Below are positions 18,647 through 34,229 of a DNA stretch of 64,000 bases, one piece after another. Origin of the DNA: an uncultured Bacilli bacterium (GTDB lineage Bacteria; Bacillota_I; Bacilli_A; RF39; UBA660); the NCBI GenBank assembly GCA_949505625.1, contig CATBQD010000006.1, positions 3,495 to 67,494 of the forward strand. Direction: 5' to 3'. Every line of letters starts with the position of its first letter. Positions within the stretch are counted from its first letter, which is position 1. Under the pieces are notes generated by a model. It saw only the letters and a list, made by a program, of their open reading frames with translations, searched no databases and had not been told where the DNA came from. A program made the translations under genes and the position numbers.

Positions 18647-18653
18647 ATTAAAA

Positions 18654-19271
18654 TCAATTCCTTTCTTCTTTTACCCAAGCATAGAATTTATTAGGTTTTA
18701 TTCCACCTAGTAATTCCATAGCTTTTTTTGCTGTAATTTTTTTATTGTTCCACTTCTCATAAACTTCGCTCCAGTTAGTAGGAAGTGGGAGAGTAGGACG
18801 ACCCATACGATTACCAGTTTTAGTTTTACCAGTTTTCAAGTAAAGGTCAATTCCCTCTCTTTGCCTAGAACGTATATAAGTTCTTTCTTGTTCTGCAACA
18901 TAAGATAACAAAGCAAGAATAATATCATTAATTACACTTCCCAATAAATCTTTATTCTTGCTTGTATCAAGTATTGGCATATCCAATACTCGAATATCAG
19001 CTTTAATATTTTTCGTGATATCTCGCCACTCTTCAAGTATCATATTATAATTTCTTCCTAAACGGTCTATACTCTTAATTACTAAAATATCATCTTCTCT
19101 TAAAGCTTTCTTTAAAACTTGATATTGCTCACGATTAAAATCTTTTCCACTTTGGAAATCGACCATTAAAAATCGTTCATCAACACCACTTTCTATGAGA
19201 GCTATTTTTTGCCTATCTTCTACTTGACTAGAAGAAGAACAACGTGCATACCCCCAAGTTCTACTACTCAC
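18654..19271 (-). CDS. Resolvase/invertase-type small serine recombinase
   Basis: WGYARCSS, SGKDFNR, SIDRLGR, AEQER..IRSRQREGI, MGRP, C-terminal HTH. Confidence 0.93.
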   Translation of the reverse strand: MSSRTWGYARCSSSSQVEDRQKIALIESGVDERFLMVDFQSGKDFNREQYQVLKKALREDDILVIKSIDRLGRNYNMILEEWRDITKNIKADIRVLDMPILDTSKNKDLLGSVINDIILALLSYVAEQERTYIRSRQREGIDLYLKTGKTKTGNRMGRPTLPLPTNWSEVYEKWNNKKITAKKAMELLGGIKPNKFYAWVKEERN

Positions 19272-19332
19272 TACCTAACACCTCCTTTATAAAATTAATT
19301 ATATTGGAGATAAAATTTGAAATCCCGCCGAA

Positions 19333-19448
19333 AGTGTTGCAAAAACTCCAAAAACATAAGAAATATTGCAAAACTTATGAATTGGAGTTTTATAAACACT
19401 ATATTCAGCTTTTTTTGCGTGTTGCTAAAAGTATACTTTAAGCAATAC
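19333..19448. promoter_or_regulatory. Putative res site upstream of resolvase
   Basis: Nested inverted repeats aaaactccaa/ttggagtttt and cataag/cttatg; near-palindrome ttgctaaaagtatactttaagcaa. Confidence 0.55.
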
Positions 19449-19903
19449 TAATTTTCTTTAGTATCATAATTTCTTTTAAAGGATATACGAGCACCATTAA
19501 CACCCATAAAATTACAATTTTCTTTTATTTCAGCTTTAACACTAAATGGAAACATGTATTCTTCTTTAGGTGCATTATCAAACAATATATCTATTTGCAC
19601 TATAACCATTCCTTTATCTAATAACTCTTCATAAGATTTTAAAATCTCTTCATCACAAATAATTGAAAAGCTATCAAAATCAAGAGTTGTATCTACATCA
19701 CTTTCACCAAAAATCAAAACGTAACTATCAGACTTAGTAATACCTCTAATATCTGCAAGATGAATTTGATTTTTAGAAATAATAATTTTGGTAGTATCAT
19801 TCTCAAAAACCGAATGTAAATCAGAATAAGAACCGCCATGCAATACTATTTCTCTTAACTTTTTCTTTTTCTCTTTTTTTACAGTACCATTTTTCACATC
19901 CAC
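19448..19903 (-). CDS. Hypothetical protein
   Basis: ORF track; coupled to upstream ORF. Confidence 0.55.
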   Translation of the reverse strand: MDVKNGTVKKEKKKKLREIVLHGGSYSDLHSVFENDTTKIIISKNQIHLADIRGITKSDSYVLIFGESDVDTTLDFDSFSIICDEEILKSYEELLDKGMVIVQIDILFDNAPKEEYMFPFSVKAEIKENCNFMGVNGARISFKRNYDTKEN

Positions 19904-20307
19904 ACTTCACCTTTCTTTTTAGTTCTAACAAATAGTGCCAATTCGTTAGTTTCTAAATTTTCTTCTACTTCTGTATAATACATTCCACAACAAGGACAAT
20001 CACTTATTCCAGACTGAAATTCTTCATATGTAGTGTCATCATATTCTAAACCAACTTTATAAAGTCTAAAATCTGGTTTTAATAATTCTTCTATCGTACA
20101 CTTATTCAATTTATCGGTGTTTAAAATTAAAACCAAATCATTATAAGTAGATGGAGTTAAAAACTTATCATCAAAGCAATACATATTGTATTGAATTCCA
20201 TCCATTCTTATACCTTTTATCTCCTCTTCAAAAAATTTCATTTTAGGTAATGGAGTTTCTTTACTCCATACTGCTATACTTTTTATTTTTTTATTTACAT
20301 TTTTCAT
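19894..20307 (-). CDS. Hypothetical protein with CPCC motif
   Basis: ORF with GAGG RBS; DCPCCG. Confidence 0.6.
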   Translation of the reverse strand: MKNVNKKIKSIAVWSKETPLPKMKFFEEEIKGIRMDGIQYNMYCFDDKFLTPSTYNDLVLILNTDKLNKCTIEELLKPDFRLYKVGLEYDDTTYEEFQSGISDCPCCGMYYTEVEENLETNELALFVRTKKKGEVWM

Positions 20308-20404
20308 AATTTACCTCTTTCATTATATATAATCGCTAAGGCGAGAGAGCAACGCCTACGATTATATTTTCTATTTAAATTACTCTCTCAATAAAGAACT
20401 AAAA

Positions 20405-20986
20405 CTAAGCTTGGTAATACCAATACTTCTTGTCGTTGTTCTTTTCATATTGTTTAATCTTAGCTTGTCTACCATGCAAACGATTAATCGCTTCAGTTAT
20501 AGTAGAAACATCTCGAACATCATTTGTTGTTAAATGATAATTGAAACGAGATAGTACAGAATTTAATCTATCTATCGTGTTCTCAATATAATCATTACCT
20601 AAGAAGAATAAGTCCTCAATGCTTTTCACATTTGGAGTACCATCATTAACTAAGCAAATTAATTTAACAACGGGTGTATTAGAACTGCTCGTATAATAAT
20701 ACTCTGCTCTATCAATAGAACATGGAAGAACCACATTATCGGGTATCATAGCATGTTCTTTCTCGATAGATTTCTGCAAAGCCATTTGCATAATATTTAA
20801 TGGTTCTTCATGATTTACATCAAATATCTCTATGTTATCTTGGAAAAGCCAACCATCATCTAGTTGTGTATCCATATCATCTTGTGATATAATATCATTA
20901 GATGTATTTGAGATGTTTACATCATTTTGCTCTAAATTAGTTGCACCTAAATTAGAGCTTTTTACATCTTCTGATGAATTAAACAT
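20405..20986 (-). CDS. Possible DUF669-like OB-fold ssDNA-binding protein
   Basis: SIDRAEY..SSSNTPVVKL...DG...IEDLFFL...LHGRQAKI pattern; AGGAGG RBS. Confidence 0.45.
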   Translation of the reverse strand: MFNSSEDVKSSNLGATNLEQNDVNISNTSNDIISQDDMDTQLDDGWLFQDNIEIFDVNHEEPLNIMQMALQKSIEKEHAMIPDNVVLPCSIDRAEYYYTSSSNTPVVKLICLVNDGTPNVKSIEDLFFLGNDYIENTIDRLNSVLSRFNYHLTTNDVRDVSTITEAINRLHGRQAKIKQYEKNNDKKYWYYQA

Positions 20987-21231
20987 TATATACCTCCTTT
21001 CTCATAAGATTTTGCAAAGGGCAACTAGTTTGATAGGAGTTGTGGCTATATTAATGGCTCTTTTTTGCCCTTTGCAGTTTAAATATAACACTATGCACGA
21101 CAAGTTTCATTCATTTTCAAAAATTAAAAAATAAGTTAAAATTCTTACTAAAATTTCAAAATTTTGAAAAAGTTGTATTTACTTTCATTTTAATGAAAAT
21201 TATAATTAAAGTAATGTTATGAGGTGGGAAA

Positions 21232-21993
21232 ATGGTAAAAAAAACTGCTTATCAAATCGATAAGCATAGTGATGTTGAAATTAAAAAGACTGTAAAGGAA
21301 AATCGAGGAACTGATGAAAATGCCAAAACATATGAAATATTTGCAAGTAGATTAAATAAAGAACTGACTGAAAGAAAAATAAATCAAGAAGAATTTGCGA
21401 AAAAAATTGATATTTCAGTTGGATCATTATCTAATTACCGAAATGGAAAAAATATACCAACGGGTGATATTATTGTTAAAATAGCCAATGAATTTAACTG
21501 CTCTACTGATTATTTATTAGGTTTAACTGACTTAAAAAGTATGGATAGTGATTTTAAAGCTATTCACGAAATAACTGGTCTATCCGATAAAGCAATAAAA
21601 TATTTAGAGTATGAGCTTATAATATGCCAAAAAAAATACAAAGAATATGAAGCTAGAGTAGAAGAAGCAAAAGCAGAATACAAAAGAAGTGGAAAAAAAA
21701 TTAAATATATGATATACAACGGTAGTATATTTGACACATTAAACTACCTTATAGAAAATGAGTCAAATTATCACTTTCTTTATACTCTCACTAATTTTTT
21801 ATGGGAAAATAATAATACTAACAGGCATATAGAAAATATTATTTCCAAAAATAAACGAAAAGATTTAAGCCCTATAACCGCTCAAACAATACAACGTTAT
21901 AAACAACAAGCTCACAATAATCAAGAAATTATAAAAATAATGCTAGACAAAATATTATTTAAAATGGGAGATAATTATTCAAGTAATAAATAA
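21232..21993 (+). CDS. XRE-family repressor of the element
   Basis: INQEEFAKKIDISVGSLSNYRNG..IP; STDYLLGLTD; ITGLSDKAI. Confidence 0.88.
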   Translation: MVKKTAYQIDKHSDVEIKKTVKENRGTDENAKTYEIFASRLNKELTERKINQEEFAKKIDISVGSLSNYRNGKNIPTGDIIVKIANEFNCSTDYLLGLTDLKSMDSDFKAIHEITGLSDKAIKYLEYELIICQKKYKEYEARVEEAKAEYKRSGKKIKYMIYNGSIFDTLNYLIENESNYHFLYTLTNFLWENNNTNRHIENIISKNKRKDLSPITAQTIQRYKQQAHNNQEIIKIMLDKILFKMGDNYSSNK

Positions 21994-22047
21994 TAGCCAA
22001 AATAAAAGAATCAAAATATCTCCAGGGTTGCCAACAAACTATTAATA

Positions 22048-22446
22048 CTATCTTTTATTAAGTGCCATTAACACAACTACATTATATTTGCTTTCTAAAC
22101 TCTCTAGCACATTTCTTATATAATAAAGTTTTTTACCTTGAATACGAAAATTGTAACCATCAACCATTATAAAACAATCAACAAATACATACTTCGGTTT
22201 TTTATACTGAAGTATGTATTTTTCTATATCCTCAAGTAATAGAGAAGTATCGTTTATTACAGTTATATTCGTTCTATTTAACACTTTATACTTGTTTAAT
22301 AGATATTCTTTAGAATTAACACAACTCAAATATAATATCGTTTTATTAGTGTTTATTCTCCTTATATGATTAACAAAAGAAGAAGTTATTCTTTTATCTT
22401 CCTCTTGATTATAAAATAATGCTCGACTTCTCATATATACCACCAA
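22048..22446 (-). CDS. Degenerate DnaB-like RecA-fold fragment (no Walker A)
   Basis: TNKTILYLS...SKEYL, KYVFVD, L.SLESKYNVVVLM align by eye with the 26776-27429 DnaB fragment. Confidence 0.5.
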   Translation of the reverse strand: MVVYMRSRALFYNQEEDKRITSSFVNHIRRINTNKTILYLSCVNSKEYLLNKYKVLNRTNITVINDTSLLLEDIEKYILQYKKPKYVFVDCFIMVDGYNFRIQGKKLYYIRNVLESLESKYNVVVLMALNKR

Positions 22447-22502
22447 TTCTAATTATAAAGTAGATACTTCAAAATGCTACAAATTTATATATACTCTTCA
22501 TC

Positions 22503-22817
22503 TCATACTTTATTAGAGCTTGATAAAAATGTTATATTTTCTGCAATTATATTAGTGTGCTTTACTTTATCATATAAAGTAGTTTCAACTCTACCTCTAA
22601 CTCCAACTACATCTCCTTTATTACAATACTCTGATACGCTTTCAGCAACACTATTCCATAATATACAATCTATAAAATCTTTTTCATATTCGCCATTTTC
22701 ATTTTTATAACTTCTAGGTACTACTAAAGTTATATTAACAACTTTCTTTCCATTTTCCAATTCTTTCACTTCTGGTATATCTAACAATCTTCCAACCATA
22801 ACAACTTGATTTAACAT
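22503..22817 (-). CDS. ssb: Single-stranded DNA-binding protein, OB fold only, no acidic tail
   Basis: MLNQVVMVGRL, DFIDCILWN..AE....YCNKGD.VGVRGRV; ends FLSSSNKV. Confidence 0.9.
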   Translation of the reverse strand: MLNQVVMVGRLLDIPEVKELENGKKVVNITLVVPRSYKNENGEYEKDFIDCILWNSVAESVSEYCNKGDVVGVRGRVETTLYDKVKHTNIIAENITFLSSSNKV

Positions 22818-22820
22818 ATT

Positions 22821-23141
22821 TTATTCCTCCTCATATTTAATTTTCAACTCATTCAAAGAAATAGCATTTTTATAATAATTAAATTCCACATCACAATCTA
22901 AACTATAAAGTTCATTAAAACTTACATATCCGAATTCACTATCTGTTATATGACAATAACCGAAGAAAATAAAATCATCATCTTCACAATTACCCTCTAA
23001 TATTAACCAATACATATTTTGATATGGAATAAAGATTTCAAGTATTACTTTCTTATCCTCTATATTCTCTTGTGAATATAAAGGATAATCTTTAAACATC
23101 ATATCTAATTTTTCTTTATTTAATAATTTAACACTACTCAT
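22821..23141 (-). CDS. DUF2958 family protein
   Basis: PLYSQE...FIP..N.YW...E...FFGY....EFGYVSFNEL. Confidence 0.75.
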   Translation of the reverse strand: MSSVKLLNKEKLDMMFKDYPLYSQENIEDKKVILEIFIPYQNMYWLILEGNCEDDDFIFFGYCHITDSEFGYVSFNELYSLDCDVEFNYYKNAISLNELKIKYEEE

Positions 23142-23565
23142 CTTCTAACTCCCCACAAACATATATTGCTTTCAATTCTTTTGGATTATTAATAATTTTT
23201 TTTAAAAGAGTTATTTCGCTTAGAGGTCTTAACTTACTATTAATTATTTCCTCAATAGATTTTATAAACATAGGGTAGTGATTATAATAAAACTTTAAAA
23301 TGCTATCTAAATCATCAATATAATACTTCTTACCTTTAAAATGAAGAAAATCTTGTAAATCCTCGCTTAATTCTTTTGTGTCAAAACCATATAATAAAAT
23401 ATTTAATTTTAAAAATACGTGATATAAATCTAAATATTTATTCAATAATTTAATAAGTAGCCCTGTATCTATTACTTCATTTTTATTATAAGTTTCTTCA
23501 AATCTAATATAATCTTCATCATCAAGCAACTCCCTTTTTAATCTCATTACTTTGCTTACTCCCAT
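23134..23565 (-). CDS. Hypothetical protein
   Basis: ORF with AAGGAG RBS. Confidence 0.55.
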   Translation of the reverse strand: MGVSKVMRLKRELLDDEDYIRFEETYNKNEVIDTGLLIKLLNKYLDLYHVFLKLNILLYGFDTKELSEDLQDFLHFKGKKYYIDDLDSILKFYYNHYPMFIKSIEEIINSKLRPLSEITLLKKIINNPKELKAIYVCGELEDE

Positions 23566-23690
23566 ACTATTTGCTCCTTTCTAAGTATATAAATATTTTA
23601 GTATTCATTTATAACAAAGTCCCGCCATAAAAAGAAAAAAGAACACTTTATTATTGTGTTCATTAACATACAAAAACATAAAATTTTTAA

Positions 23691-25058
23691 TTAGTTGCAT
23701 TTCAATTCATCAAAAATATTAATTAAATTAGTACATGATTCGTAATCTCCTTTGGGAAAAAGCACTTCTTTGCCATCTATAATAGTATAAACATCGCTTG
23801 GGTTATGCTCTATATGGCAATAATTAGCACTACTCTCTTTACCCGAACAAGAATAACAACCTTGTTCTTCATTTGTACCATCACAACAAGGAAACATATT
23901 ATTTTTATAATTATAGCCTGCTGCTTTTACTTTAGGTAAACACCTTTCAACTCGTTCATTCCATTCTCTCTCACTTTTTTTAAACTCGTTATTCATTTCA
24001 TAATTTTTTATAATACTTTCAGCGATACCCAATTTACTAATAATCATATTATCTGTTATAGAATTAGGATATATAAGATTAACTTCATTAAGAGGAATTA
24101 AGTACATTCCACCATCTACTTGACATTTTCCATCATCATATTCAGCATATCCTTGGTCGCATATATCATTATCTAAACTTTCAATTATATTAGCAGTTAA
24201 CACATTTTTATATGGTGTACCGTTTAATGTAAATAATGGAACATATTTAAATTCAATTCCATTTATAATAACCTTATTATTTTTTATATTAAAATTAAAT
24301 TTTTTTAAAGTATTAAGGATCTTGTTTGTGCTATCAGTAAATATAGATTGTAAATAATTTAACCCTGTATCATCTTCTACATTATAATCACTATCTTTAT
24401 TAATACCAGTTTGTAAAATGATATAACACTTTAACTCGTTATTATCCATGTTACAAGCATATACCTTATCATAATCCTTATCTTTCTTTAATTCTTCCCA
24501 TAACTTAGTATAATAACCAACATTACTTTTATTCTTTATTTCCTCGTTATTTTTTATATTTGATAATAGTTCTTGCTTAGATGTTTCATCAATAAATTCT
24601 ACTGAAATATAATCTTTATTTTCAAAATTTAAACTAATAGTAGTTTTTACTTTAACCCCTTTAGAAGTATCAAAACCTTTTTCTTTTGCTAAATTATAAA
24701 TATTATCAATACTTTCGCCGATGCTTTTCCCTTTAACATCAATATCATTATAAATACTTACACAGTCATCATTTAAACAAGCAATATCATTTACTTTATT
24801 TTCTTTTATAGTTAATACAAATGATGGGTTAATTTCTATAAATACATAATCTATTCTATCCTTAGAAATTTCATTAATAACATTATTCATTTTCTTAGTA
24901 TTTATATCTTCTAATTTATTATTAATAAACCTATATCCAAAGAATAATATTATAGGTATAAAAATAATTAACAAGATAATTAAAATTAACTTTCTTCCTT
25001 TTCCTTTTTTCTTTTCTAACTCTCCATTTTTTACTTGTTTCTTACCCACATAAATCAC
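23691..25058 (-). CDS. Membrane protein with RsgI-like extracellular domain and Cys-rich C-terminus
   Basis: TM helix then YVFIEINPSFVL...V....LNDD (RsgI DINPS-like motif). Confidence 0.6.
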   Translation of the reverse strand: MIYVGKKQVKNGELEKKKGKGRKLILIILLIIFIPIILFFGYRFINNKLEDINTKKMNNVINEISKDRIDYVFIEINPSFVLTIKENKVNDIACLNDDCVSIYNDIDVKGKSIGESIDNIYNLAKEKGFDTSKGVKVKTTISLNFENKDYISVEFIDETSKQELLSNIKNNEEIKNKSNVGYYTKLWEELKKDKDYDKVYACNMDNNELKCYIILQTGINKDSDYNVEDDTGLNYLQSIFTDSTNKILNTLKKFNFNIKNNKVIINGIEFKYVPLFTLNGTPYKNVLTANIIESLDNDICDQGYAEYDDGKCQVDGGMYLIPLNEVNLIYPNSITDNMIISKLGIAESIIKNYEMNNEFKKSEREWNERVERCLPKVKAAGYNYKNNMFPCCDGTNEEQGCYSCSGKESSANYCHIEHNPSDVYTIIDGKEVLFPKGDYESCTNLINIFDELKCN

Positions 25059-25081
25059 TCACTTTCTAATTTTAATTATAA

Positions 25082-25552
25082 TTAAGAAACCTCTTTATTA
25101 TATTTTTCAATTACTTCTTTTAATTTATTGTTAGAACTACCTCTATCCACATAACCTCCACTTGATAATTTCTCTATCATCCACTCAAAGAACATTAATA
25201 CATAGTTATACATTACTTCTTTATCATAATACTTTATATCTAATTCTTCTTTTTCACTATCTTTGTAATACCTATCTATTACTGAATGTAAATCTTTATC
25301 CCAGTCGCAATGTTCTATCATTTCTTTTCTTAATACTTTAACTGATGGATAAGCTCCAGTAGTACGTAACTTAATTAAATGTGGAATAAAATCGTGTATT
25401 CTTCTTTCCCAATAATCATAACCAAAAGGTGTATTGTATTTCGTAATAGCAAATACTATATATGTTGCAATTATATCAGAACGTGAGGTTAAAAGCCATA
25501 AAGTACCTTTATCTATTTTTTTATCTCTTATTCTTCTATATAAACCTTTCAT
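25082..25552 (-). CDS. Hypothetical protein, possibly DUF29-like helical fold
   Basis: YW.RRIHDFIP...KLR....YPS pattern; weak recognition. Confidence 0.4.
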   Translation of the reverse strand: MKGLYRRIRDKKIDKGTLWLLTSRSDIIATYIVFAITKYNTPFGYDYWERRIHDFIPHLIKLRTTGAYPSVKVLRKEMIEHCDWDKDLHSVIDRYYKDSEKEELDIKYYDKEVMYNYVLMFFEWMIEKLSSGGYVDRGSSNNKLKEVIEKYNKEVS

Positions 25553-26037
25553 TAATTACCACTCTCACTTTTAGAAGTTAATTTAGTATAGCTAGGTATA
25601 GTTAAAATTTCATTCATAGATGTTTGAGAATTATTTTGATGTTCCCAAGAAAATATTAAAAGCTCCCAGTTTGTATTGAAATTATCGTATTTAGGTTTAG
25701 AAGATAAAAACTTAATTAAATTCTCTTTTTGATTATCGTTTAAAACATCTTCATTTCCAATGTGATTATAGTATTCAGCCTTATCAAACCTTATGCAAGT
25801 ATGAAATCCCATTTTCTTATTTTTTTCTTTTTTTCTATAATGGAAGTGAGGTATATCACTTAACATATAGTCATCAGTAACAATAAATACTTCATACCCA
25901 TCATCAGTAAAACCAATTCTATTTATTCCCTCAATATCATAATCTTTATTTAATTCATTTAATACCCATTCATAATTAAAACACTCATCTTGGTTATTGT
26001 TACCACCATAATTCGGTATTACACCTATCTTAGCCAT
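25552..26037 (-). CDS. DUF4160-like phage-type protein
   Basis: RIG...YEVFI.TDD....IPHFH...HTCI...EYY.H...NWE...W. Confidence 0.5.
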   Translation of the reverse strand: MAKIGVIPNYGGNNNQDECFNYEWVLNELNKDYDIEGINRIGFTDDGYEVFIVTDDYMLSDIPHFHYRKKEKNKKMGFHTCIRFDKAEYYNHIGNEDVLNDNQKENLIKFLSSKPKYDNFNTNWELLIFSWEHQNNSQTSMNEILTIPSYTKLTSKSESGN

Positions 26038-26057
26038 ATTTAAATCACTTCTCTTTT

Positions 26058-26756
26058 TTATTCACAACTACTTAAATACCTATGAATATCTCCAATATCC
26101 ATATCATCTCTTTCTGTATATTCTTTTAAAAAATCATAATGTCTTTTAATGAAATCTTGAACTCTCTTAAATTCTTCTTTAGGTATTCCAAGTTTAACAT
26201 CATATACTAATTGTGGATTTTCTTTATCAATACTTACAGTAACATAATCTTCAAACCTTTTATTACTTTTATGGGTATTCTGCATAAGTAAAGTATATAA
26301 ATCTCTTTCATCATCATACTCATTAACATCACAATATAAATACAAATCTACTGGAAGACTTTGGTAATCTCTAGCACTAATTCCATTTACAAAGAAACCA
26401 TCAATTACAGTAGGTTTAAATCTGTTTATATCTGTATATTCCATAATAGATAAATCAATATCAATACCGTTTATTGTATCTATTAAAATTTGATGTTTTT
26501 CTCTAATGAAGTTTAATACTTTTTTTAAATCTTTTTCTTTAACATTTAATTCTACTTCTTCTAGTAATTTTGGGTTATCTTTATCAATACTAATAGGAAT
26601 TAAATCATTTCCAGTAGTATATTTATTATAGTTGTTCTGCATATAAATTATTTTCTTTTTATCATCATATTTTAACCACAATGTTATAGGTAGATTAGTG
26701 TTAGGATAAATCTTACTTCCTTTTTGTGCTAATATAATCATAGGTGTAAATTCCAT
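26058..26756 (-). CDS. Tandem-duplicated domain protein (phage-type)
   Basis: Two copies of LP..L.L...MQN...SIDK.NP.L.....K.V..FI. Confidence 0.65.
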   Translation of the reverse strand: MEFTPMIILAQKGSKIYPNTNLPITLWLKYDDKKKIIYMQNNYNKYTTGNDLIPISIDKDNPKLLEEVELNVKEKDLKKVLNFIREKHQILIDTINGIDIDLSIMEYTDINRFKPTVIDGFFVNGISARDYQSLPVDLYLYCDVNEYDDERDLYTLLMQNTHKSNKRFEDYVTVSIDKENPQLVYDVKLGIPKEEFKRVQDFIKRHYDFLKEYTERDDMDIGDIHRYLSSCE

Positions 26757-26775
26757 ACTTAATCACTTCCTTATA

Positions 26776-27429
26776 TTACGGAATAACGGCAATTACAATA
26801 TTTTTATCTAATACTATTACATCTTTAAAATAGTTGTTATCTTCAGTAGTAGTTAATTTTTCTTTAGGGTTATAATAACTTTCTCTATATAAGAATATAA
26901 TTTTATCTGTATGTTGTAATAATGGAGAATTATCTTGATAATCAAAACTAGTAATACTATCATCTTCTAATGTTTTCGCTTGTTGTTTAGTTAATTGGGA
27001 TAATATTATTATAGGAACATTTAAATTTGTTGCTACTTCTTTTAAAATTTCTGTTGAATGTTTTAAATCATCCAATACAAGAACGTTAAAAGTAGTTGGG
27101 TGTATAAGTTGAATATAATCTATTACTACCAACGATAAACCATTTTTTGCGACTTCTTCACATTTACTTTTAATTTCTTCAATAGTTATCATTGGTGTAT
27201 CTATAATTTCAACTTTATCCGTTGTTATTCTCTCTTTTAAACGTTCTTTGCTTGTTTCTAAATTAAAATATAATATCTTATCATTTGTTTGTTTAGCAAT
27301 ATTATTTATTATATTTATAGCAAATGTACTTTTTCCAACACCTGGGCGACTTGCAATAGCATATAACTTTCCTTTTTCTAAACTACCGATAGTATTATCT
27401 AAATTTTCATAACCTGTTTTTAAATTCAT
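26776..27429 (-). CDS. DnaB-like helicase C-terminal (ATPase) domain only
   Basis: TGYENLD, ASRPGVGKST Walker A, FNLE, VVIDYIQL, LSQL; no N-terminal domain; no KNR finger. Confidence 0.85.
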   Translation of the reverse strand: MNLKTGYENLDNTIGSLEKGKLYAIASRPGVGKSTFAINIINNIAKQTNDKILYFNLETSKERLKERITTDKVEIIDTPMITIEEIKSKCEEVAKNGLSLVVIDYIQLIHPTTFNVLVLDDLKHSTEILKEVATNLNVPIIILSQLTKQQAKTLEDDSITSFDYQDNSPLLQHTDKIIFLYRESYYNPKEKLTTTEDNNYFKDVIVLDKNIVIAVIP

Positions 27430-27430
27430 T

Positions 27431-28411
27431 TTAAATCACATCTTCATATACTTTTAAATAATTCATTTTGTAATAAGTTAACCATACATATATTATTGCT
27501 CTGTTAATCGAGTAGGCTTTAGAAAACAAATATTGTATTTTAGAACAACAATTTATGTACTCATCTTCTATTCCATGCTCTTTCATAATAAAGATGTATT
27601 TTTCCCAAGTTTCTTTATATATCTTAATTCTATGTTTTCCTTTAGCAATAAAGTTCATTATTTCATAAGCTAATTTTTTCTCTAATCCTGCCATTATTAA
27701 AAAACTATAAATTGCTTCTCTATATACTGGATAATATATTATAGAATTTACTATATCTAATTTATCAGTAATTGTGCTTCTGTCTAAAGAAATAACACTA
27801 GCAACACAATTAACATTATTGATTATAAACTCTTGATTAAATAAACTTGTAGCTATTTTCATTTCACTTTCATCAAATATAGTTGTATTTTCATCGATTA
27901 GATACTTGTAAAGTTCTTCATCTTTTAAATCTATATCTTGTCTATGCTTACCTGTTCTTGTTTCTAAATTTTCTAATACAGAACATAATTCGTATGTATT
28001 TAAATATAAATTATGACCCTTTAAATCTTCTTTATTATTAATAGTTATACTATATTTCTTACATACTTCTTTTGTATATTCAAAAATAGTTTTAAAATAA
28101 TCTTCTGCAAATTCTAAATCAAATGTTATTGGTTTAAATCCTTTTTCATAAACTATACAATATTCAATTGGATTTACAAAAGTAATTCCCAGTAAGTATG
28201 CAATATAAGATGAACCACATATTCTATCTATCATAATCCTATTATCAGATTTCACTTTTTTTGCTATTTCATATGCAATTAAATACTGATATTCTATTTT
28301 TTCATCTATAATTATATCTAATTCTTCTTCTATTCTTGTTTTTATCTCTTGTGGTATATTGTTATTATATAATTCGAATAATTTATCATCTAATATTTCT
28401 TTTAGCTTCAT
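27431..28411 (-). CDS. Truncated PolC-like polymerase fragment, likely catalytically inactive
   Basis: R.EEEL..I, GSSYIAYLLGITFVNP, GLEKKLAYEIM..IAKGK, YI.CCSKIQYLFSKA match PolC; PDID reads ITFD and KLDIL reads NLYLN. Confidence 0.8.
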   Translation of the reverse strand: MKLKEILDDKLFELYNNNIPQEIKTRIEEELDIIIDEKIEYQYLIAYEIAKKVKSDNRIMIDRICGSSYIAYLLGITFVNPIEYCIVYEKGFKPITFDLEFAEDYFKTIFEYTKEVCKKYSITINNKEDLKGHNLYLNTYELCSVLENLETRTGKHRQDIDLKDEELYKYLIDENTTIFDESEMKIATSLFNQEFIINNVNCVASVISLDRSTITDKLDIVNSIIYYPVYREAIYSFLIMAGLEKKLAYEIMNFIAKGKHRIKIYKETWEKYIFIMKEHGIEDEYINCCSKIQYLFSKAYSINRAIIYVWLTYYKMNYLKVYEDVI

Positions 28412-28427
28412 TTTAATTTCCTTCCTT

Positions 28428-28573
28428 TTAATCACTTAATATATGAAATTCATCGATACCAACCAATAATGCTAAAGTTCTACCATTATCCCGTTTCATA
28501 TGTATTTGCCCCTCATCATCAATTATATCAACATTTTCTATTATTTCTTTAACTTCTTTTTTAATTTATTCAT
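28428..28573 (-). pseudogene. Frameshifted/truncated DUF4314-like ORF
   Basis: AAGGAG RBS + ATG 28573; the -1 frame reads VDIIDDEGQIHMKRDNGRTLALLVGIDEF. Confidence 0.6.
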
Positions 28574-28674
28574 ATTACACTCCTTAATTTTACTCATTGT
28601 AAATCAATTATAATTAAATTTTTTCTTTTAATATATTATTTTTTGGGAATAATCTCACATTTTTAAATCACTTC

Positions 28675-29739
28675 CTAATAATACTCTTCATCGTAAACAT
28701 CATCATAAAAACCATCGTCAAATATTTTCTTTTTTATATTTACAGAGTAGATATTTTCTTGATGGAGTATATCTAAATATTGTTTTAAATATTTTTGATA
28801 AACTAAATCTTCATTACCACGTACCATAGCAATAAAATTTAATCTACCCTCAATAACTTTCCTTATTTCTAAAACTAGATTATCTCTTTTATTACTACTA
28901 CAATTATAATTTTTTTCTTTTTTAAAGTAGTATAATGCTGTTCTATAAAGACCATCTTTTTCACATCTATTAAGTAATGCTCTAAGTTGTTTTAAATAAA
29001 CTTTTTTTATATTAACTTTCTCATTTACAATTAAACCAGTAACTTCTTTTCTTTCATTATTCCAACTATAATTAGTTTTCTTTTCATTAATAGTAAAGCC
29101 CTGCTTTTCAATAATACTTCTTAGTTTATTCCCTATAATCACATAATTTTCTTGCGTTCTAGTAACTATCTCTTTAGGAAATGGTTTATTGCTAGATAAC
29201 GTTATATCGTCAACATATCTAGAATAATTAAAATCATACTTCTTACTTAAATTTAACAACTGTTTATCTAATGAATAACATACAATATTCGATATTGTAG
29301 GAGAACAAGGAGATCCTTGTGGTAATTCATTATGATAACAAGCAATTTTTGAAAGTGTTGTTGCAACATAATTTGGTAAATTAAACGGTTCACTCATAAA
29401 TATTCCTCTAACTCTTCCAAAGTGTATAGATGGAAAGAAATCTTTTAAATCAATATTTAAAATGTACTTAGCCTTGTTATGTACCTTAGCATTATCAACT
29501 ATACTTTTACCTTTAACAAAACCATACTGACACTCTAAAAATTCATATTTTTTTGTAATGTAATTATTTAATTTTTCTTGTACCCATTTTAATCTATCAT
29601 CTGGAGCAGAGATTTTTCTATAACCACCACTTCTTTTAGGTACTTTAAACGTATGATACTTAGATTTAGTAAGTACATTATCTAAAGTATTTTCTTTTAT
29701 ATCTAAAATATAACAAATAAAATTTTTATAATTTCTCAT
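28675..29739 (-). CDS. Retron-type reverse transcriptase
   Basis: KRSGGYRKISAP, GFVKGKSIVDNAKVH (region X NAxxH), IDLKDFFPSI, LPQGSPCSP, YSRYVDD, EVTGLIVN (region Y VTG). Confidence 0.93.
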   Translation of the reverse strand: MRNYKNFICYILDIKENTLDNVLTKSKYHTFKVPKRSGGYRKISAPDDRLKWVQEKLNNYITKKYEFLECQYGFVKGKSIVDNAKVHNKAKYILNIDLKDFFPSIHFGRVRGIFMSEPFNLPNYVATTLSKIACYHNELPQGSPCSPTISNIVCYSLDKQLLNLSKKYDFNYSRYVDDITLSSNKPFPKEIVTRTQENYVIIGNKLRSIIEKQGFTINEKKTNYSWNNERKEVTGLIVNEKVNIKKVYLKQLRALLNRCEKDGLYRTALYYFKKEKNYNCSSNKRDNLVLEIRKVIEGRLNFIAMVRGNEDLVYQKYLKQYLDILHQENIYSVNIKKKIFDDGFYDDVYDEEYY

Positions 29740-29870
29740 TTGAATACCACCTCTTGAATTCTAAACATTAATAACCACCCGAAGTGGTTACATATCGAAG
29801 ATATGTACAAAATGTAACAATTTAATATTCACTGCGAAACGCCCGTGATATGCAATTCTTTATATTTTAA
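29740..29870 (-). ncRNA. Putative retron msr-msd ncRNA
   Basis: Directly upstream of the RT; three hairpins at 29829-29848, 29789-29807 and 29772-29790. Confidence 0.65.
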
Positions 29871-30665
29871 TTAGTATTCAATAAATGTAGATTTTTCTTT
29901 ATCATATTCTAAATATGTTATACCAACACTACAAAACCGATTTTTAGATACACTAATCTCAGTTATATTCTTATTATCATAATCACGATATAATAAAATA
30001 ACAACATCTGAATTACATTCTAAATTACCAGTATTTTTTAAATCTACAAGTAATGGTCTTTTATTTTCTCTATATTCAACATTTCTTGATAACTGCGATG
30101 ATATAAAGATAATTGTTTTATATTTTGTAGTAAGATAACGTAATCTATCTAAAATATCATTAGATAAATCAGTTACAGAAGTAAAAGGTTTTTCGTTTTT
30201 CATAAGTTGTATGTAATCAATAACTATAAATTTAATATCCCTATTTTCTTCTAATAATTGTTCTAATTCTAAAATATTAAAACAATCATCTGAAATATAA
30301 AGATTATATTTTTTAGAAATAAATTCATTCATACTTATTTCTGAATAATCTTTATTATTCCAAATTTTTACTAAATCTTGTTCTGTACATATTCCAGCAA
30401 ATTTTAATGCTGCTATCTCTTTACTTGTTTCTAAACTTAAATATAAAATAGGTAAATTATATTTTTTTAACAAATTAATTACTATATTATTTAAAAATGT
30501 AGTTTTTCCCATTCCTGGTCTAGAGCCTACTGTTATTATATTTCCATCTTTTAGACCACCTATTAGAGCATCTAAATTTTTATAACCTAAATCATATGAT
30601 TTTGAGAATTTATCATTAATTTTGATTTCATCTATCTTATTTATTGTTGCCACGATTACAAACAC
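29871..30665 (-). CDS. DnaB-like helicase C-terminal domain with intact motifs
   Basis: SRPGMGKTT, LSLE, IVIDYIQLM, SQLSRNVE.R.NKRPLL.DL, SKNR; lacks the N-terminal primase-binding domain. Confidence 0.9.
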   Translation of the reverse strand: MFVIVATINKIDEIKINDKFSKSYDLGYKNLDALIGGLKDGNIITVGSRPGMGKTTFLNNIVINLLKKYNLPILYLSLETSKEIAALKFAGICTEQDLVKIWNNKDYSEISMNEFISKKYNLYISDDCFNILELEQLLEENRDIKFIVIDYIQLMKNEKPFTSVTDLSNDILDRLRYLTTKYKTIIFISSQLSRNVEYRENKRPLLVDLKNTGNLECNSDVVILLYRDYDNKNITEISVSKNRFCSVGITYLEYDKEKSTFIEY

Positions 30666-31165
30666 CCCTTACTTAAAATTTCTTGTTTTCTTTCCTTAAC
30701 ACTTTCTATATCAAGTGTTTCAAAGAAAAAATATTTTTCTTGTTCTTTATCGATTAAACTTTCATTAATTTTAGGTATCTGTTTCATTTTTATAACACCC
30801 ATACCATCGTATTTTTTATTAGCACACTCTCCATAAAATCTCCACGAAGAACCTATTTTTATTTTTTCTAAAGTTTCTTCTAAAGAATTATTTGAAATTG
30901 CTAATCTAGCAATAATACTACCAGTAATATCACTTAATTTTAAAGTTATAAAAGTTACATCTCTTTCACTTACTATAATATCGATACCGAATATATAAGC
31001 CTCAATTAAAGTGTTATCAGTTTCAAAATCAAATCTTCTTGGTAAATCTTTAATCTTAGTTATAGGATATTCACATTTTTTATCAGCAAGAGTTGAAATA
31101 ATTTTAGTAAATTTATTACTAGAAATATCCGTTTTATTATGCATTACATAGTTTCTCCTTTCCAT
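30656..31165 (-). CDS. Stand-alone PolC-type OB-fold domain protein
   Basis: ITKIKDL...IEAYIFGID...ITLKLSDITGSI...EKIKIG..WRFYG resembles the PolC OB domain (TDYTDSI); start may be ATG 31144. Confidence 0.7.
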   Translation of the reverse strand: MERRNYVMHNKTDISSNKFTKIISTLADKKCEYPITKIKDLPRRFDFETDNTLIEAYIFGIDIIVSERDVTFITLKLSDITGSIIARLAISNNSLEETLEKIKIGSSWRFYGECANKKYDGMGVIKMKQIPKINESLIDKEQEKYFFFETLDIESVKERKQEILSKGCL

Positions 31166-31171
31166 AATATT

Positions 31172-31227
31172 ATTATAAAGAAAAATAGATAAGAAAACTA
31201 GCTAATAACTAATAAATTATCTATTTC
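31172..31227. repeat. 56-bp direct repeat copy 1 (imperfect hairpin + TATAAT on minus strand)
   Basis: 49/56 identical to 32389-32444 by manual alignment. Confidence 0.85.
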
Positions 31228-32357
31228 TAGTTTTGTAATTCATCAAAATAAGCTATATAATCTTCAACACTACCATCTTTTATCTTATTATTAACATTTA
31301 TTTTTGGATATTCTAAATTTAAATTTAATACAGTTTCTTTTATTCCAACATCAATTAATAATTTCTCAACTTTACTATTGTAATGATTTTTTCTAAATTC
31401 TATAAAATCATTCCATTTATCGGTCGTATTATTATAATATTCAGTAAAATTAGCATTAAAATTATTTAAGTCTTTTTCCATTTCTTCTATATGATTTTTT
31501 AAAACTTCTTTTGGTTTGATTTTATTTAGTTTTAAAGTTTCTAAGTATATTAAATCATCTAACTTCGACTCGATATATTTTCTACTTTCGTTTCGTATAC
31601 CACTTTTAAAAAGATTTTTACATTTACATACATAATAAACCCAAAATATTGTTGTAGGAATATTTAGAATAATTACTGTAACAAGCAAACCATCATCACT
31701 GCTACTTGAATTAGCACTAGCAAATATAACTAAATATATTACCGCCAAAATAATAGAGCTTATAATAAGACCTGTTATACATTTACTACTATTTTTTTCA
31801 TTAATAACATCATCGTAAATATTCATTTCTTTTAATTCTTTCTCATATTCATCTGGATTTTGAATTTTTTCCTCAAATTCTGTTCTTATTTTAATCTTTT
31901 GTTCCTCAGATAGTTGCTTTTTTAACTTTCTAATTCGCGAAAACACTTCATAATAACGACTAATAATCAATTCATCATCTTTAGATAAATAAATTTTTGC
32001 ATCTTGTATTTGTTCATCAAGATTATAATATTTTAAATCAATATCTTCTTTAAGTTTCTGTAACTCTTTAGGTGGTGTAAATAAGTAATCTCTAAAACTA
32101 TCAATAGCCTCTTTAGTAATCCCAACATCATCACATAACTTTAAAATTCGCATTTCTTCTTCGTGTTCCATTTGCTTATATTGAGCTATCATTTCATTTA
32201 ATCTATTTTTTTCGTTAATTTGATTTTGTTGTGCTATTAACCGATTTTGTTCTTCTAATAAACTTTTTTGCTCTTGATGTTGGTCATACCTTGCGTCTGC
32301 CTCACTTCGTTGCCCCCAAGTATCATATACTTTCCCATCTTTCCCTATATATCCCAT
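31227..32357 (-). CDS. Coiled-coil protein with two TM helices
   Basis: Hydrophobic segments ITGLIISSIILAVIYLVIFA and LLVTVIILNIPTTIFWVYYV; AAGGAG RBS. Confidence 0.7.
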   Translation of the reverse strand: MGYIGKDGKVYDTWGQRSEADARYDQHQEQKSLLEEQNRLIAQQNQINEKNRLNEMIAQYKQMEHEEEMRILKLCDDVGITKEAIDSFRDYLFTPPKELQKLKEDIDLKYYNLDEQIQDAKIYLSKDDELIISRYYEVFSRIRKLKKQLSEEQKIKIRTEFEEKIQNPDEYEKELKEMNIYDDVINEKNSSKCITGLIISSIILAVIYLVIFASANSSSSDDGLLVTVIILNIPTTIFWVYYVCKCKNLFKSGIRNESRKYIESKLDDLIYLETLKLNKIKPKEVLKNHIEEMEKDLNNFNANFTEYYNNTTDKWNDFIEFRKNHYNSKVEKLLIDVGIKETVLNLNLEYPKINVNNKIKDGSVEDYIAYFDELQN

Positions 32358-32388
32358 ATTTATATCTCACTCCTTTAAATTATTAATA

Positions 32389-32444
32389 ATTATAATGAAA
32401 AATAGATAAGAAAACTAGCCAAAAACCAGTTACTTATCTATTTC
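32389..32444. repeat. 56-bp direct repeat copy 2
   Basis: attataatgaaaaatagataagaaaactagccaaaaaccagttacttatctatttc; overlaps the last codons of 32430-33062. Confidence 0.85.
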
Positions 32445-33062
32445 ATTTACTAGATACATAAAAGTACCTGCTTTTTCATCATTTATTTTACTAAATTCTT
32501 TCCAATTCATAGTATAAGATCCTTTTAATGTTATAGGTTCTTCATAACCTTTTTTAGGTGTTTCTCTATTCCAATTTAAAGTACCAGTTTTTACTACGTT
32601 TTCGTGAATAGAAAACTCTTTATACTCTGCATTTTCTCTCGGTACATTCAAATAAGATAAATCGTTTGTTAAGAATATTGTATAACCTTTTTTAAATAAT
32701 GGTTCATTATCTCTAAATTTTTCAATTCTTTCAACATCTTTTAAAGCAGAATAACAATTTTCATTTTGAGCATTATCAGTAGATAAATTATATTCAATAT
32801 TATCTACTATTCCTTTAAAAGCAAGTTTCTTATACTTTAATTCAATAGGATAGTACTCATTATCTCTAATTAGTACAATATCAATACTCTTTCTAACATC
32901 AAAAGGAGAACGATATTCAGTTTCTATTCTTGTATTTTCATACATATCTCGAATAACATCACGTAACTTTTGCTTTAAATCATCTTCATTACGAAAAATC
33001 TTATTTCTTTTCCTTAGTTCATCTAAAACTAAATTAATATCAAAATCTGTATTCACAATCAA
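32430..33062 (-). CDS. PD-(D/E)XK restriction-endonuclease-like protein
   Basis: F.NEDDL, ETEY, IDIVL...YPIELKYK, LKDVERIE, GYTIFLTND..Y. Confidence 0.7.
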   Translation of the reverse strand: MIVNTDFDINLVLDELRKRNKIFRNEDDLKQKLRDVIRDMYENTRIETEYRSPFDVRKSIDIVLIRDNEYYPIELKYKKLAFKGIVDNIEYNLSTDNAQNENCYSALKDVERIEKFRDNEPLFKKGYTIFLTNDLSYLNVPRENAEYKEFSIHENVVKTGTLNWNRETPKKGYEEPITLKGSYTMNWKEFSKINDEKAGTFMYLVNEIDK

Positions 33063-33197
33063 TCACCTCCATATCTACAAGCACAACCTTACGGCACGTC
33101 AATAACGTGCTTTTTCAACTAATTTTACCACTTAAATGATATAATTGTCAACGAGTTTAAAGTCGATAATTTACGATATTTACAAAGGAGTGTAGAT

Positions 33198-33410
33198 ATG
33201 AAATTAAATTTCAATGATTATGAACCTAAAGATGTTATACGTATTATTCGTGAATGGACTGGACTTACTCAAGAAGAATTCGCAAAAACAATTAATAAGA
33301 AAAAAAGAACTATACAAGATTATGAAGCTGGTAAGTGTAGATACTATACAGAAACATTAAAATTAATCTGTAAAGTTCATAACATAGAAATAACTATTAA
33401 CAAGAAGTAG
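33198..33410 (+). CDS. XRE-family HTH regulator
   Basis: IREWTGLTQEEFAKTINKKKRTIQDYEAG. Confidence 0.88.
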   Translation: MKLNFNDYEPKDVIRIIREWTGLTQEEFAKTINKKKRTIQDYEAGKCRYYTETLKLICKVHNIEITINKK

Positions 33411-33414
33411 TGAG

Positions 33415-33717
33415 GTGATACAAATGAGTGAAGAAGAGATAATAAAAAAAATTCAAAATCTTTTAGATGAAAAAGTCTTTTCGATAATATTAAAATGTGA
33501 TGATGAAAAAATAAGAACTTCTACTAACAAAGTAAGAAATAAACTTTTTGAAAAGACAATGGTAAAAGATTTTATCGGTCATTTTGATATATTAACCAAA
33601 TACCAAAGTATAGCAGGTTTAAATTTCTATGCTAAACTAAAAACACACGGATTACCAGCACTTGAAGACGTTGCAGATGAAGTTCACGATATAGTTGATA
33701 ACTGGTTAAATAAATAA
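33415..33717 (+). CDS. Hypothetical protein (paralog of 33921-34229)
   Basis: Shares N.L......K..I..F....K...LK......LEDV...W.NK register with the convergent ORF. Confidence 0.65.
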   Translation: MIQMSEEEIIKKIQNLLDEKVFSIILKCDDEKIRTSTNKVRNKLFEKTMVKDFIGHFDILTKYQSIAGLNFYAKLKTHGLPALEDVADEVHDIVDNWLNK

Positions 33718-33920
33718 TTTAAGATATTTACGAAAAAGTAATTATCTTTTTTATTTGTATCAACTAAATTCGCTCAAAAACATAGAAATAAAGAGAGTTT
33801 CTAGTTAATCAACATAATTACATTAATTTACTAAAAACTCTCTAAAATACTTAAATATGTACTGAATAAGAGAAGATTATAACTTATTAAAAATAAAAAA
33901 GTTAAAAATCTCTAACCTTT

Positions 33921-34229
33921 TTACTTATTTACCCATTTACTATTAAACTTTTTATCAAAATTTCTTTTTACATCTTCTAAACGTAGTATCTTTCTATTTT
34001 TTAAATACTTAGATACCCATTTTAATTTTGAAGTATTACATTTAACTATATTATTAAAAAAATTAATAACACCTTTAGGAGTATGTATCTTATATAACTC
34101 ATTGATAGTACCCTCTATTATAGTAGTTGCCTTTGTATCTCCTTTACTAGTAGCAGAGTAGTGAGCTTTCATAAGTACATTATCAATTAAATAATTCCTC
34201 ATTTCATTACATTTATTTTCATTTTTCAA
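33921..34229 (-). CDS. Hypothetical protein (paralog of 33415-33717)
   Basis: Same residue register as 33415-33717; TTG start. Confidence 0.65.
   Translation of the reverse strand: MKNENKCNEMRNYLIDNVLMKAHYSATSKGDTKATTIIEGTINELYKIHTPKGVINFFNNIVKCNTSKLKWVSKYLKNRKILRLEDVKRNFDKKFNSKWVNK

Follow-up and report, generated by a model that had tools for sequence, protein, structure and literature searches.

We studied a 64,000-nucleotide (nt) stretch of DNA, hereafter the window, from an uncultured Bacilli bacterium (GTDB lineage RF39; UBA660; assembly GCA_949505625.1, contig CATBQD010000006.1), in which a retron reverse transcriptase (RT) lies among genes that resemble pieces of the bacterial replisome. 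An initial annotation of this DNA had proposed that the fragments partner the retron, as decoys, sensors or dominant-negative effectors, and had named as an alternative that a retron inserted into unrelated cargo. Every open reading frame (ORF) that it listed is present and open on the minus strand at the expected position (Table 1), and profile matches to PolC, to the C-terminal domain of DnaB (DnaB_C) and to single-stranded DNA-binding protein (SSB) bear out its description of the genes around the retron as replisome-derived. In the order of transcription, a protein with an OB domain (OB) and a DnaB-type ATPase (DnaB_C1, C1) are followed by a non-coding RNA (ncRNA), the RT, a reduced PolC (mini-PolC) and a second DnaB-type protein (DnaB_C2, C2); an SSB and a third fragment lie further on. 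The genes are co-oriented and closely packed: OB and C1 overlap by 10 nt, and C2 starts 1 nt after the mini-PolC stop.

Table 1. Features of the locus in window coordinates (aa, amino acids)
Feature	Position	Strand	Description
Genomic island, ~21 kb	15463..36655	.	contains all replisome-fragment genes and the retron; adjoins tRNA-Trp
tRNA-Trp	36674-36747		abuts the island
Serine recombinases	16616-18340 and 18654-19271		at island end
OB protein, 169 aa	30656..31165	-	homologous to PolC OB domain
DnaB_C1 (C1), 264 aa	29871..30665	-	linker helix and RecA-like ATPase domain of DnaB
ncRNA (msr/msd candidate), 103 nt	29756..29858	-	conserved structured element
Retron RT, 354 aa	28675..29739	-	type XI-like, no fused protease
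mini-PolC, 326 aa from ATG 28411 (ORF to GTG 28435, 334 aa)	27431..28411	-	reduced PolC
DnaB_C2 (C2), 217 aa	26776..27429	-	short DnaB C-terminal domain
SSB, 104 aa	22503..22817	-	OB domain alone
Third fragment, 132 aa	22048..22446	-	possible central piece of the DnaB C-terminal domain, without Walker A (tentative)

The RT has RVT_1 as its only Pfam domain and therewith lacks the C-terminal trypsin-like protease fusion of canonical type XI retrons. It is matched by 53 PADLOC retron RT models, among them RT-TIR_XII (E 5.5e-118) and RT-Protease_XI (E 5e-117; 390–393 bits for the two), with the RT part only; in the 510-position RT-protease model the match spans positions 13–330. NCBIfam models of retron/anti-phage RTs gave E 3.5e-102 and 1.5e-99, which stay under the full-length cut-offs because the fused domains are absent. 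The protein carries the motifs YVDD, NAKVH and VTG, the last two of which we take to be retron RT signatures. By these matches it is classified as an RT of the retron clade.

A homologue search returned 2621 proteins at E ≤ 0.001 (out of 4529 candidates). The best 19 are stand-alone proteins of 330–356 aa with 67–95% identity, except for one of 537 aa; from the 20th onward identity is at most 48% and most proteins carry a trypsin-like domain, among the matches listed. We built a tree of 73 rows including the window RT, namely the first 19 of the 120 listed homologues, alternate ones of the remainder and three TIR-fused sequences. There the stand-alone proteins form a single monophyletic clade (SH-aLRT 100) nested among RT-protease sequences, five of which fall into the enclosing group of 25 (support 99). 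The nesting therefore points to a type XI derivative in which the protease was lost, and from its sequence we classify the enzyme as a protease-less offshoot of type XI retrons. The 537-aa member (P0009, 76% identity) ends in a C-terminal extension of ~190 aa that has no precomputed Pfam domain. On viral contigs no relative of the RT was found (7 pattern matches, 0 confirmed).

C1 and the RT are separated by a spacer of 131 nt, with 82–86% identity across loci whose C1 proteins share 49–56%. The ncRNA in it consists of an invariant hairpin (H1), two further hairpins (H2 and H3) and a GAATT/AATTC repeat that closes the whole. H1 and H2 fold in all six sequences compared, and H3 in four of the six minimum-energy folds. 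H2 and H3 show compensatory changes, i.e., covariation; of the examples, one set comprises ACAUAUC/GAUAUGU versus GCAUAUC/GAUAUGC and CUUAUC/GAUAAG, the other CCAC/GUGG versus CUCC/GGAG and AACC/GGUU. No Rfam family matched the element at its gathering score. The sole hint of expression comes from short contigs in the RNA libraries of two studies that cover the region, and these (contigs only) possibly stem from DNA carry-over.

A scan for a 20-nt motif of the ncRNA yielded 16 loci, of which only L030, L031, L033 and L037 are real. The other 12 were rejected; they lie in unrelated high-GC DNA, and their number is about that expected by chance for 19 fixed bases at the size of the collection. 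L037, a metagenome contig of 304 kb, carries the 20-nt core of H1 at ~770–789, with TTGCCT before it, some 200 nt upstream of an RT-protease gene. The product of this gene is a canonical type XI RT-protease, 50% identical to the window RT. Therefore, H1 appears to be an msr-like hairpin that the window shares with protease-fused type XI retrons.

C1 matches Pfam DnaB_C over profile positions 5–253 of 255 (E 2e-43). It aligns only to residues 160–429 of DnaB structures in the PDB and has no N-terminal primase-binding domain. It has both Walker motifs (A and B), an SQLSR motif and an RxxKRP region (KRP arginine finger), and Walker A, Walker B, SQxSR and RxxxRP are kept in all five family members compared. 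The earlier description of C1 as an ATPase domain with intact Walker motifs, devoid of the N-terminal domain, is thus accurate. A replicative DnaB combines the N-terminal and the ATPase domain, which C1 does not; C2 and the third fragment are shorter still. The host's own DnaB is a 450-aa ORF elsewhere in the genome (G000 C4). Of 401 genomes from the host's order, only two contain a member of the C1 family, namely the window's genome and G352, both of which bear the RT; G352 carries the window's element, with contig and coordinates equal to those of G002.

The OB protein has no match in Pfam. It matches NCBIfam models of PolC (NF001688 positions 215–331, E 1.6e-8; TIGR01405, E 3.9e-6) and, in a tblastn search, aa 228–311 of the host's own PolC (E 3.6e-7). 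A profile built from six family members retrieved 106 representative proteins, which take the form of stand-alone proteins (120–160 aa), fusions of a helix-turn-helix (HTH) with OB (~200–230 aa) or N-terminal PolC fragments (match at ~residues 185–300). At E ≤ 1e-10 the profile matched 153 of these 401 genomes, and in most of them the ORF that it matched was the size of a PolC (~1430–1690 aa). On account of the NCBIfam, host PolC and order-wide matches, the label of a PolC-type OB is correct. We also considered OB proteins of ~335 aa as OB–DnaB_C fusions and rejected this, as Pfam gave no match.

The mini-PolC matches Pfam DNA_pol3_alpha (E 3.5e-13). Its residues 11–92 correspond to PolC 854–936 and residues 239–326 to PolC 1234–1320 (PDB 9qpc), so that it retains the beginning of the palm and a portion of the fingers and is devoid of the PHP, exonuclease, Zn-finger and C-terminal domains. 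With 326–334 aa, as against 1546 aa for the host PolC ORF, it falls short of a full PolC or Pol III alpha. The host motif PDIDLNF, whose Asp residues are presumably the catalytic ones, reads ITFDLEF in the mini-PolC, i.e., the first Asp is changed to Thr. In a collection of 5.8 billion proteins the family comprises 13 proteins of 312–348 aa with 41–99% identity and 55 invariant columns. The first Asp is lost in all 13 aligned proteins; the second position is D, N or A. The homologues begin at ATG 28411, which agrees with the start assigned in the initial annotation. None of 81 matches on viral contigs was confirmed as a mini-PolC relative. The OB and mini-Pol genes are colinear with PolC and, from their sequences, look like a split, heavily reduced PolC.

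C2 matches Pfam DnaB_C (E 9e-40) and keeps Walker A and B. It has an internal deletion of ~34 aa, and the KRP arginine-finger motif is missing, as had been noted earlier. The family comprises ~75 proteins of ~200–225 aa among 90 matches; some of its members keep KRP, those of the window's subclade do not, and members occur in the retron-less G154, G099 and G329. The family profile found 57 viral loci, all of which are ordinary phage DnaB helicases with 22–39% identity.

The SSB matches the Pfam SSB profile over 1–104 of 104 positions (E 2.6e-22). The domain fills the whole protein, which ends in SSSNKV at residue 104 without an acidic tail; thus, the tail of a bacterial SSB is absent, and the earlier reading of a tailless SSB was right. 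The C-terminal acidic tip of SSB recruits partner proteins. The third fragment had been read as a DnaB piece without Walker A. It is a conserved ORF, with orthologues of 87% (L002), 49% (G154) and 29% (G191) identity, and has no match in Pfam, NCBIfam, PHROGs or PADLOC. Comparison with the DnaB_C profile by hhalign gave a probability of 48% (E 1.8e-4, 105 columns), in a colinear alignment from just past Walker A to just before motif H3. We regard it as a conserved island gene, for which the alignment at most hints at a DnaB origin.

To see which of these genes belong to the retron, we compared the surroundings of related RTs. A context scan with one genome per species gave 133 pattern matches and 5 confirmed loci; the ncRNA motif scan added three loci with an RT of the clade, which makes five distinct lineages in total. 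The first contains the window and L001–L003 (RT 97% identical), where OB and C1 stand upstream and mini-PolC and C2 downstream. The same order is found in L031 (RT 95%), with OB at 79% and C1 at 55% identity and with mini-PolC and C2 both at 100%. In L004 and L033 (RT 82–83%), OB and C1 are again upstream, and the RT is followed by a 113-aa ORF and then by a Pol III alpha-like ORF with an intact IDIDLE (Pfam E 4.4e-34) that ends at the contig edge. In L005 (RT 70%) an HTH-OB gene and C1 precede the RT and unrelated genes follow it. The same holds downstream in L030 (RT 66%), where C1 is upstream and the contig ends before any OB.

Thus, in each of the five lineages with upstream sequence, the gene immediately before the ncRNA and RT is C1, at 49–100% identity, and a gene of the OB family directly precedes C1 in all four lineages that reach far enough. 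In L005 this OB–C1–ncRNA–RT unit lies outside the island backbone. Neither G004 nor G005, the genomes of L004 and L005, contains a mini-PolC. A retron is expected to have an accessory or effector gene conserved with its RT, and C1 is such a gene; from its sequence, it is a candidate retron accessory or effector. In L005, a 435-aa group II intron-type RT at 3564–4871 (+) and fragments of an IS3-like transposase lie just upstream of the HTH-OB–C1–ncRNA–RT genes.

Other islands carry the remaining genes without the retron. That of G154 shares the backbone, with orthologues of the window genes 34485–35465 (65%), 32430–33062 (71%) and 26058–26756 (87.5%). It contains in one contiguous run an OB protein of 136 aa, a mini-Pol III of 351 aa (DNA_pol3_alpha E 1e-7, plus fingers), a C2-family protein of 214 aa (54%) and a DnaB_C protein of 403 aa. 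The ncRNA motif is absent from G154, its genome has no RT match, and the SSB is missing from its island. The C-terminus of the 403-aa protein was considered as a DnaA domain IV, an assignment that was dropped as Pfam gave no support. In G191, whose genome likewise has no RT match, the gene of an OB protein of 135 aa is directly followed by that of a mini-Pol of 348 aa, after which comes a DnaB_C protein of 231 aa. In G288 an extended OB is followed by a mini-Pol, and the sole RT is 34% identical and on another contig. From these three retron-less contexts, it follows that the OB–mini-Pol pair is a module of the island family.

G389 (L021, C5 14688–18439 (-)) carries a mini-PolC with 41% identity, then an MBL-fold/RMMBL nuclease-like protein of 407 aa and a 488-aa protein without a family match; the contig ends just upstream of the mini-PolC, and the sole RT (32% identical) is on another contig. 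In G099 (L123, C50 8925–10271 (+)) a C2-like DnaB_C domain is fused to pentapeptide repeats (Pfam E 6e-24), in a tRNA-linked island, next to the gene of a rolling-circle Rep (PF23343, E 1e-20). Repeats of this pentapeptide type can act as DNA mimics.

The OB gene is the first gene both of the OB–C1–ncRNA–RT run and of the island OB/mini-Pol module. In the case of L033, the OB protein is 53% identical to that of the retron-less G154 and ~25% to that of the window, with RTs that are 83% identical. Comparison of window positions 22000–33600 with L002 and L031 revealed a mosaic in which the C1, mini-PolC and C2 blocks have 99–100% nucleotide identity and the adjoining blocks, namely OB, the gene of a 376-aa membrane protein and 25552–26037, have 55–85%. 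Relative to L002, C1 is identical, OB is at 84% and the gene before OB at 71%; in L031, C1 is at 55% beside an RT at 95%. With L002 as the reference, the RT has a dN/dS of 0.09, OB one of 0.52, the SSB one of 0.39 and the third fragment one of 0.36; a ratio near 1 in the fragments had been named in the initial annotation as evidence against its proposal, and the last three values lie below that. For mini-PolC and C2, only 5 and 3 differences separate the two loci, which makes their dN/dS unreadable; the conservation of these two is seen across their families.

The window is poor in GC (23–35%), with nearly all genes on the minus strand. The host genome has 1.49 Mb and is 90% complete, and mouse-gut metagenomes of 13 studies hold DNA near-identical to the window. 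In G260, from the same genus, the sequences that flank the island at ~15.46 kb and ~36.65 kb are joined, with ~1.5 kb between them, and in G389 a different insert of ~9 kb occupies the site. None of 10 further island proteins matched PHROGs, and among 50,697 phage records no DNA match was found to the island or, within it, to 26700–31200. A promoter scan (61 sites versus 66 expected) was uninformative in this AT-rich DNA.

Several other island genes deserve mention. Near the tRNA end, a protein at 35652–36194 (-) matches Pfam Fic (E 7e-11) and PDC-S04, a candidate defence family of PADLOC (E 3.7e-85), by which it is a second defence-like gene on the island. The 210-aa protein at 32430–33062 (-) has no family match; its identity is 99.5% in L001–3, 71% in G154 and 52% in G099, and it has a D...ELK pattern, seen by eye, that may be a PD-(D/E)xK nuclease motif. 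A protein of 326 aa at 34485–35465 has no library match and, by eye, an HUH-looking HLHVLI motif. The 232-aa protein at 26058–26756 (-) contains an internal repeat (residues 2–113 resemble 133–227, according to tblastn self-matches in relatives). In G154 (L122 5707–6750 (-)) its orthologue is fused with that of the next gene, 25552–26037, which carries a DUF4160-like segment (E 1.3e-6). The 240-nt spacer between the RT and mini-PolC, 28436–28674 (-), holds a tiny ORF, MNKLKKKLKK, that ends in an A-rich run; a frame of ~45 codons comes next in another phase, and the whole may be a frameshifted small gene. L004 and L033 have the 113-aa ORF in this position.

The gene arrangement is not a matter of chance, because the mini-PolC family has only 13 members and the gene order recurs in other genomes. 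In our opinion the locus is probably a composite of an island module and a C1–ncRNA–RT cassette, the latter placed between the module's genes for OB and mini-PolC, and the two have independent roles. This reading builds on gene content, homologies, motif states, co-occurrence and ncRNA conservation, all of them observed. The retron part is most likely the DnaB_C-associated lineage TXI_noncan_h, a protease-less type XI-like lineage named in an in-silico survey (Toro 2026, mSystems; main text of PMC13712802). The other part, i.e., OB, mini-Pol III and usually a short DnaB_C protein, belongs, as judged by sequence comparison, to the backbone that related integrative islands of ~20 kb share in small-genome gut Bacillota; the module also includes further island genes, e.g., the third fragment and sometimes the SSB. 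The position of the cassette between OB and mini-PolC accounts for the PolC and DnaB pieces on both sides of the retron.

For the proposal that the fragments partner the retron, this means that it is supported for C1 (five of five lineages) and OB (four of four) and does not appear to hold for mini-PolC, C2, SSB and the third fragment. The initial annotation had suggested checking which neighbours recur beside RT homologues: C1 and OB do so across lineages, and mini-PolC and C2 are not found in L005 and L030. Indeed, all four of these genes are missing from these two RT relatives (70% and 66% identity). Conversely, OB–mini-Pol III occurs without an RT of the clade in G154, G191 and G288, and mini-PolC in G389. 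Close RT homologues without the fragments, and fragments without the RT, were named at the outset as evidence against a partnership, and both are what we see for these four genes. For them, the alternative of cargo with an inserted retron is the better fit.

How such a retron might work can be outlined as follows. The RT would copy the hairpin part of the ncRNA into short multicopy single-stranded DNA (msDNA). The RT–msDNA complex may hold C1, a putative ring-forming ATPase, in an inactive state, probably together with the OB protein as a binder of single-stranded DNA (ssDNA). A phage factor that alters the msDNA or grips DnaB-like surfaces would then release C1. Once freed, C1 could block replication by loading on ssDNA at the fork, by co-assembling with the host DnaB or by titrating its loader, and the outcome would be arrest of the infected cell, that is, a role in defence. 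The island module would act apart from the retron, either in replication or establishment of the island DNA or in replication interference.

Several points weigh against a composite of this kind. OB is common to the cassette and the module, which makes the split unclean, and insertion versus deletion is not polarised. Two lineages have a Pol III alpha-like gene on the downstream side of the RT, each of another polymerase subtype (the mini-PolC and the IDIDLE-bearing protein of L033), which might reflect a functional link instead of a common backbone. The comparison involves only five distinct RT contexts, all from metagenome assemblies. The a1/a2 closing repeat of the ncRNA has 5 bp and is invariant, hence beyond the reach of a covariation test. 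The msDNA, the binding and the defence role are postulated. Additionally, the window retron, which we consider a member or close relative of TXI_noncan_h, is matched to it by the published description. In that description the position of DnaB_C is mostly +1, in genes ordered by coordinate, so that +1 may not mean downstream (main text of PMC13712802); C1 is upstream, which leaves the comparison ambiguous.

A different idea, unlikely rather than far-fetched, is that the island carries a pseudo-replisome of disabled look-alikes of host replication proteins, for its conflicts with phages or with the host. The set would consist of the PolC OB, the dead mini-PolC, degenerate DnaB pieces (one of them fused to pentapeptide repeats in a relative), the tailless SSB and the DnaB piece without Walker A. 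It might bait phage proteins that take over the replisome, or it might block replication in a dominant-negative manner, and the retron would be a plug-in that shares OB and couples msDNA sensing to it.

Close to this is an integrated decoy or dominant-negative pseudo-replisome, along the lines of the initial annotation, in which both PolC pieces, both DnaB pieces and perhaps the SSB and the third fragment work jointly with the retron, an optional arming or sensing add-on. The packing of the co-oriented genes, with overlaps or 1-nt gaps, speaks for it, as does the meeting of rare families (13 mini-PolC proteins and 19 RT-clade clusters). The Pol III alpha-like gene after the RT in two diverged RT lineages, the OB family common to retron and module, and active sites that look deliberately disabled in genes that are nonetheless conserved point the same way. 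However, the whole module occurs without the retron in G154 and G191, the retron occurs without the module in L005 and L030, and the G154 island does without the SSB. We find an integrated system unlikely.

It is also conceivable that all the genes, including the retron, serve replication or transfer of the island. In such a scheme an HUH-type initiator would nick the DNA, DnaB_C would unwind it, SSB and OB would coat the ssDNA, and the mini-PolC would recruit the host polymerase; the RT-made DNA would be a primer or regulator, not an immune sensor. The island has serine recombinases and lies at a tRNA, a related island encodes the rolling-circle Rep (PF23343), and the protein at 34485–35465 has the HUH-looking motif. 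SSB and DUF2958 domains, both typical of transferred elements, were also found. Yet the first catalytic Asp is gone in 13 of 13 mini-PolC family members, C2 has no arginine finger, the RT clade descends from RT-protease retrons, and L005 has OB–C1–ncRNA–RT outside any such island. We know of no retron that primes replication. Taken together, these objections make a common replicative role quite improbable.

That the fragments are merely decaying, functionless remnants of dead phage or plasmid replication genes, as the truncation of their domains, the loss of catalytic residues and an AT-rich sequence, prone to chance ORFs, might suggest, is very hard to believe and largely refuted by conservation: the 13 mini-PolC proteins keep their length and 55 invariant columns over 41–99% identity, ~75 C2-family proteins have ~200–225 aa, dN/dS is 0.36–0.52 for OB, SSB and the third fragment, and there are intact orthologues in several genomes and no phage similarity.

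The preferred reading, a retron cassette within an island module, can be set against systems described before. The initial annotation knew of no retron type with PolC or DnaB pieces. As for DnaB, a link was published in 2026: in TXI_noncan_h, DnaB_C proteins were found in 20 of 29 loci, with a candidate upstream ncRNA, and the meaning of the association was called unclear (main text of PMC13712802). As for PolC, the papers searched contain no such link. They also hold no other retron–DnaB connection and nothing on DnaB decoys or on inactive PolC copies borne by mobile elements; nor do they describe the island module, the OB partner or the family of dead mini-PolC proteins.

The window resembles TXI_noncan_h, as that main text describes it, in several respects. 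It has a stand-alone type XI-related RT that branches within or next to type XI in the 73-row tree, separate DnaB_C ORFs no further than two genes from the RT (C1 directly precedes it and C2 is the second after it) and a host among gut-associated Bacillota. The described ncRNA motif lies 22–104 bp upstream of the RT start and has a double stem-loop and an a1/a2-like motif (PMC13712802), with which the conserved structured ncRNA just upstream of the window RT is compatible. In contrast to the lineage as described, the window has OB before C1 and a degenerate C2 and a mini-PolC after the RT; the terms "OB-fold" and "polymerase III" do not occur in the main text of the survey. To TXI_noncan_h our analysis adds an OB protein alongside the ATPase, as well as the finding that the catalytic motifs of this ATPase are intact.

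The only prior link between DnaB_C and protease-less type XI-like retrons is thus a statistical survey, and the locus now gives a concrete candidate unit, defined as OB, the ATPase with intact motifs, the 103-nt ncRNA and the RT. Its relatives offer a natural series of partner swaps, with RTs 83–95% identical while C1 is at 50–55% and OB at 25–79%, and they tell which neighbours fall outside the retron unit. If the proposal is true, retrons would have a new kind of effector, namely a ring ATPase that descends from the replicative helicase. Beyond the retron, a family of gut-bacterial islands retains, under selection, copies of PolC and DnaB that are strongly reduced and apparently inactive, a matter of relevance to the copying, hijacking or jamming of replication by mobile elements.

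Canonical type XI retrons provide the nearest relatives of the window RT (at most 48% identity, among the matches listed) and, in L037, share the 20-nt ncRNA core. They differ in that the window RT is unfused and the presumed effector is a separate ATPase. In tripartite retron toxin-antitoxin systems (Sen2/St85, Ec86), RT–msDNA restrains an accessory protein until phage disturbance. The window likewise has RT, ncRNA and an accessory protein in one operon, and the same logic of restraint may apply by analogy; its accessory, however, is a ring ATPase of the DnaB type, accompanied by an OB protein, and not a nuclease, NDT, protease, TIR or membrane protein.

For the mini-PolC, a parallel is offered by ImuB, a catalytically dead polymerase homologue that acts as a scaffold with ImuA and DnaE2 according to the part drawn on here of a 2026 survey of bacterial polymerases, in which truncated sequences were discarded (PMC12926913). 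In both cases, as far as that part describes ImuB, a polymerase fold is under selection without its catalytic residues, beside a gene for a RecA-fold ATPase; ImuB is a Y-family protein and part of a mutasome, whereas the mini-PolC is a C-family core of ~330 aa carried by an island. SCCmec-type islands encode the Cch helicase, CCPol and an SSB-like protein. By gene description, the window island is similar, i.e., moved by serine recombinases and equipped with helicase-like, polymerase-like and SSB proteins, but its polymerase piece is without the catalytic Asp and its helicase pieces are without the DnaB N-terminal domain.

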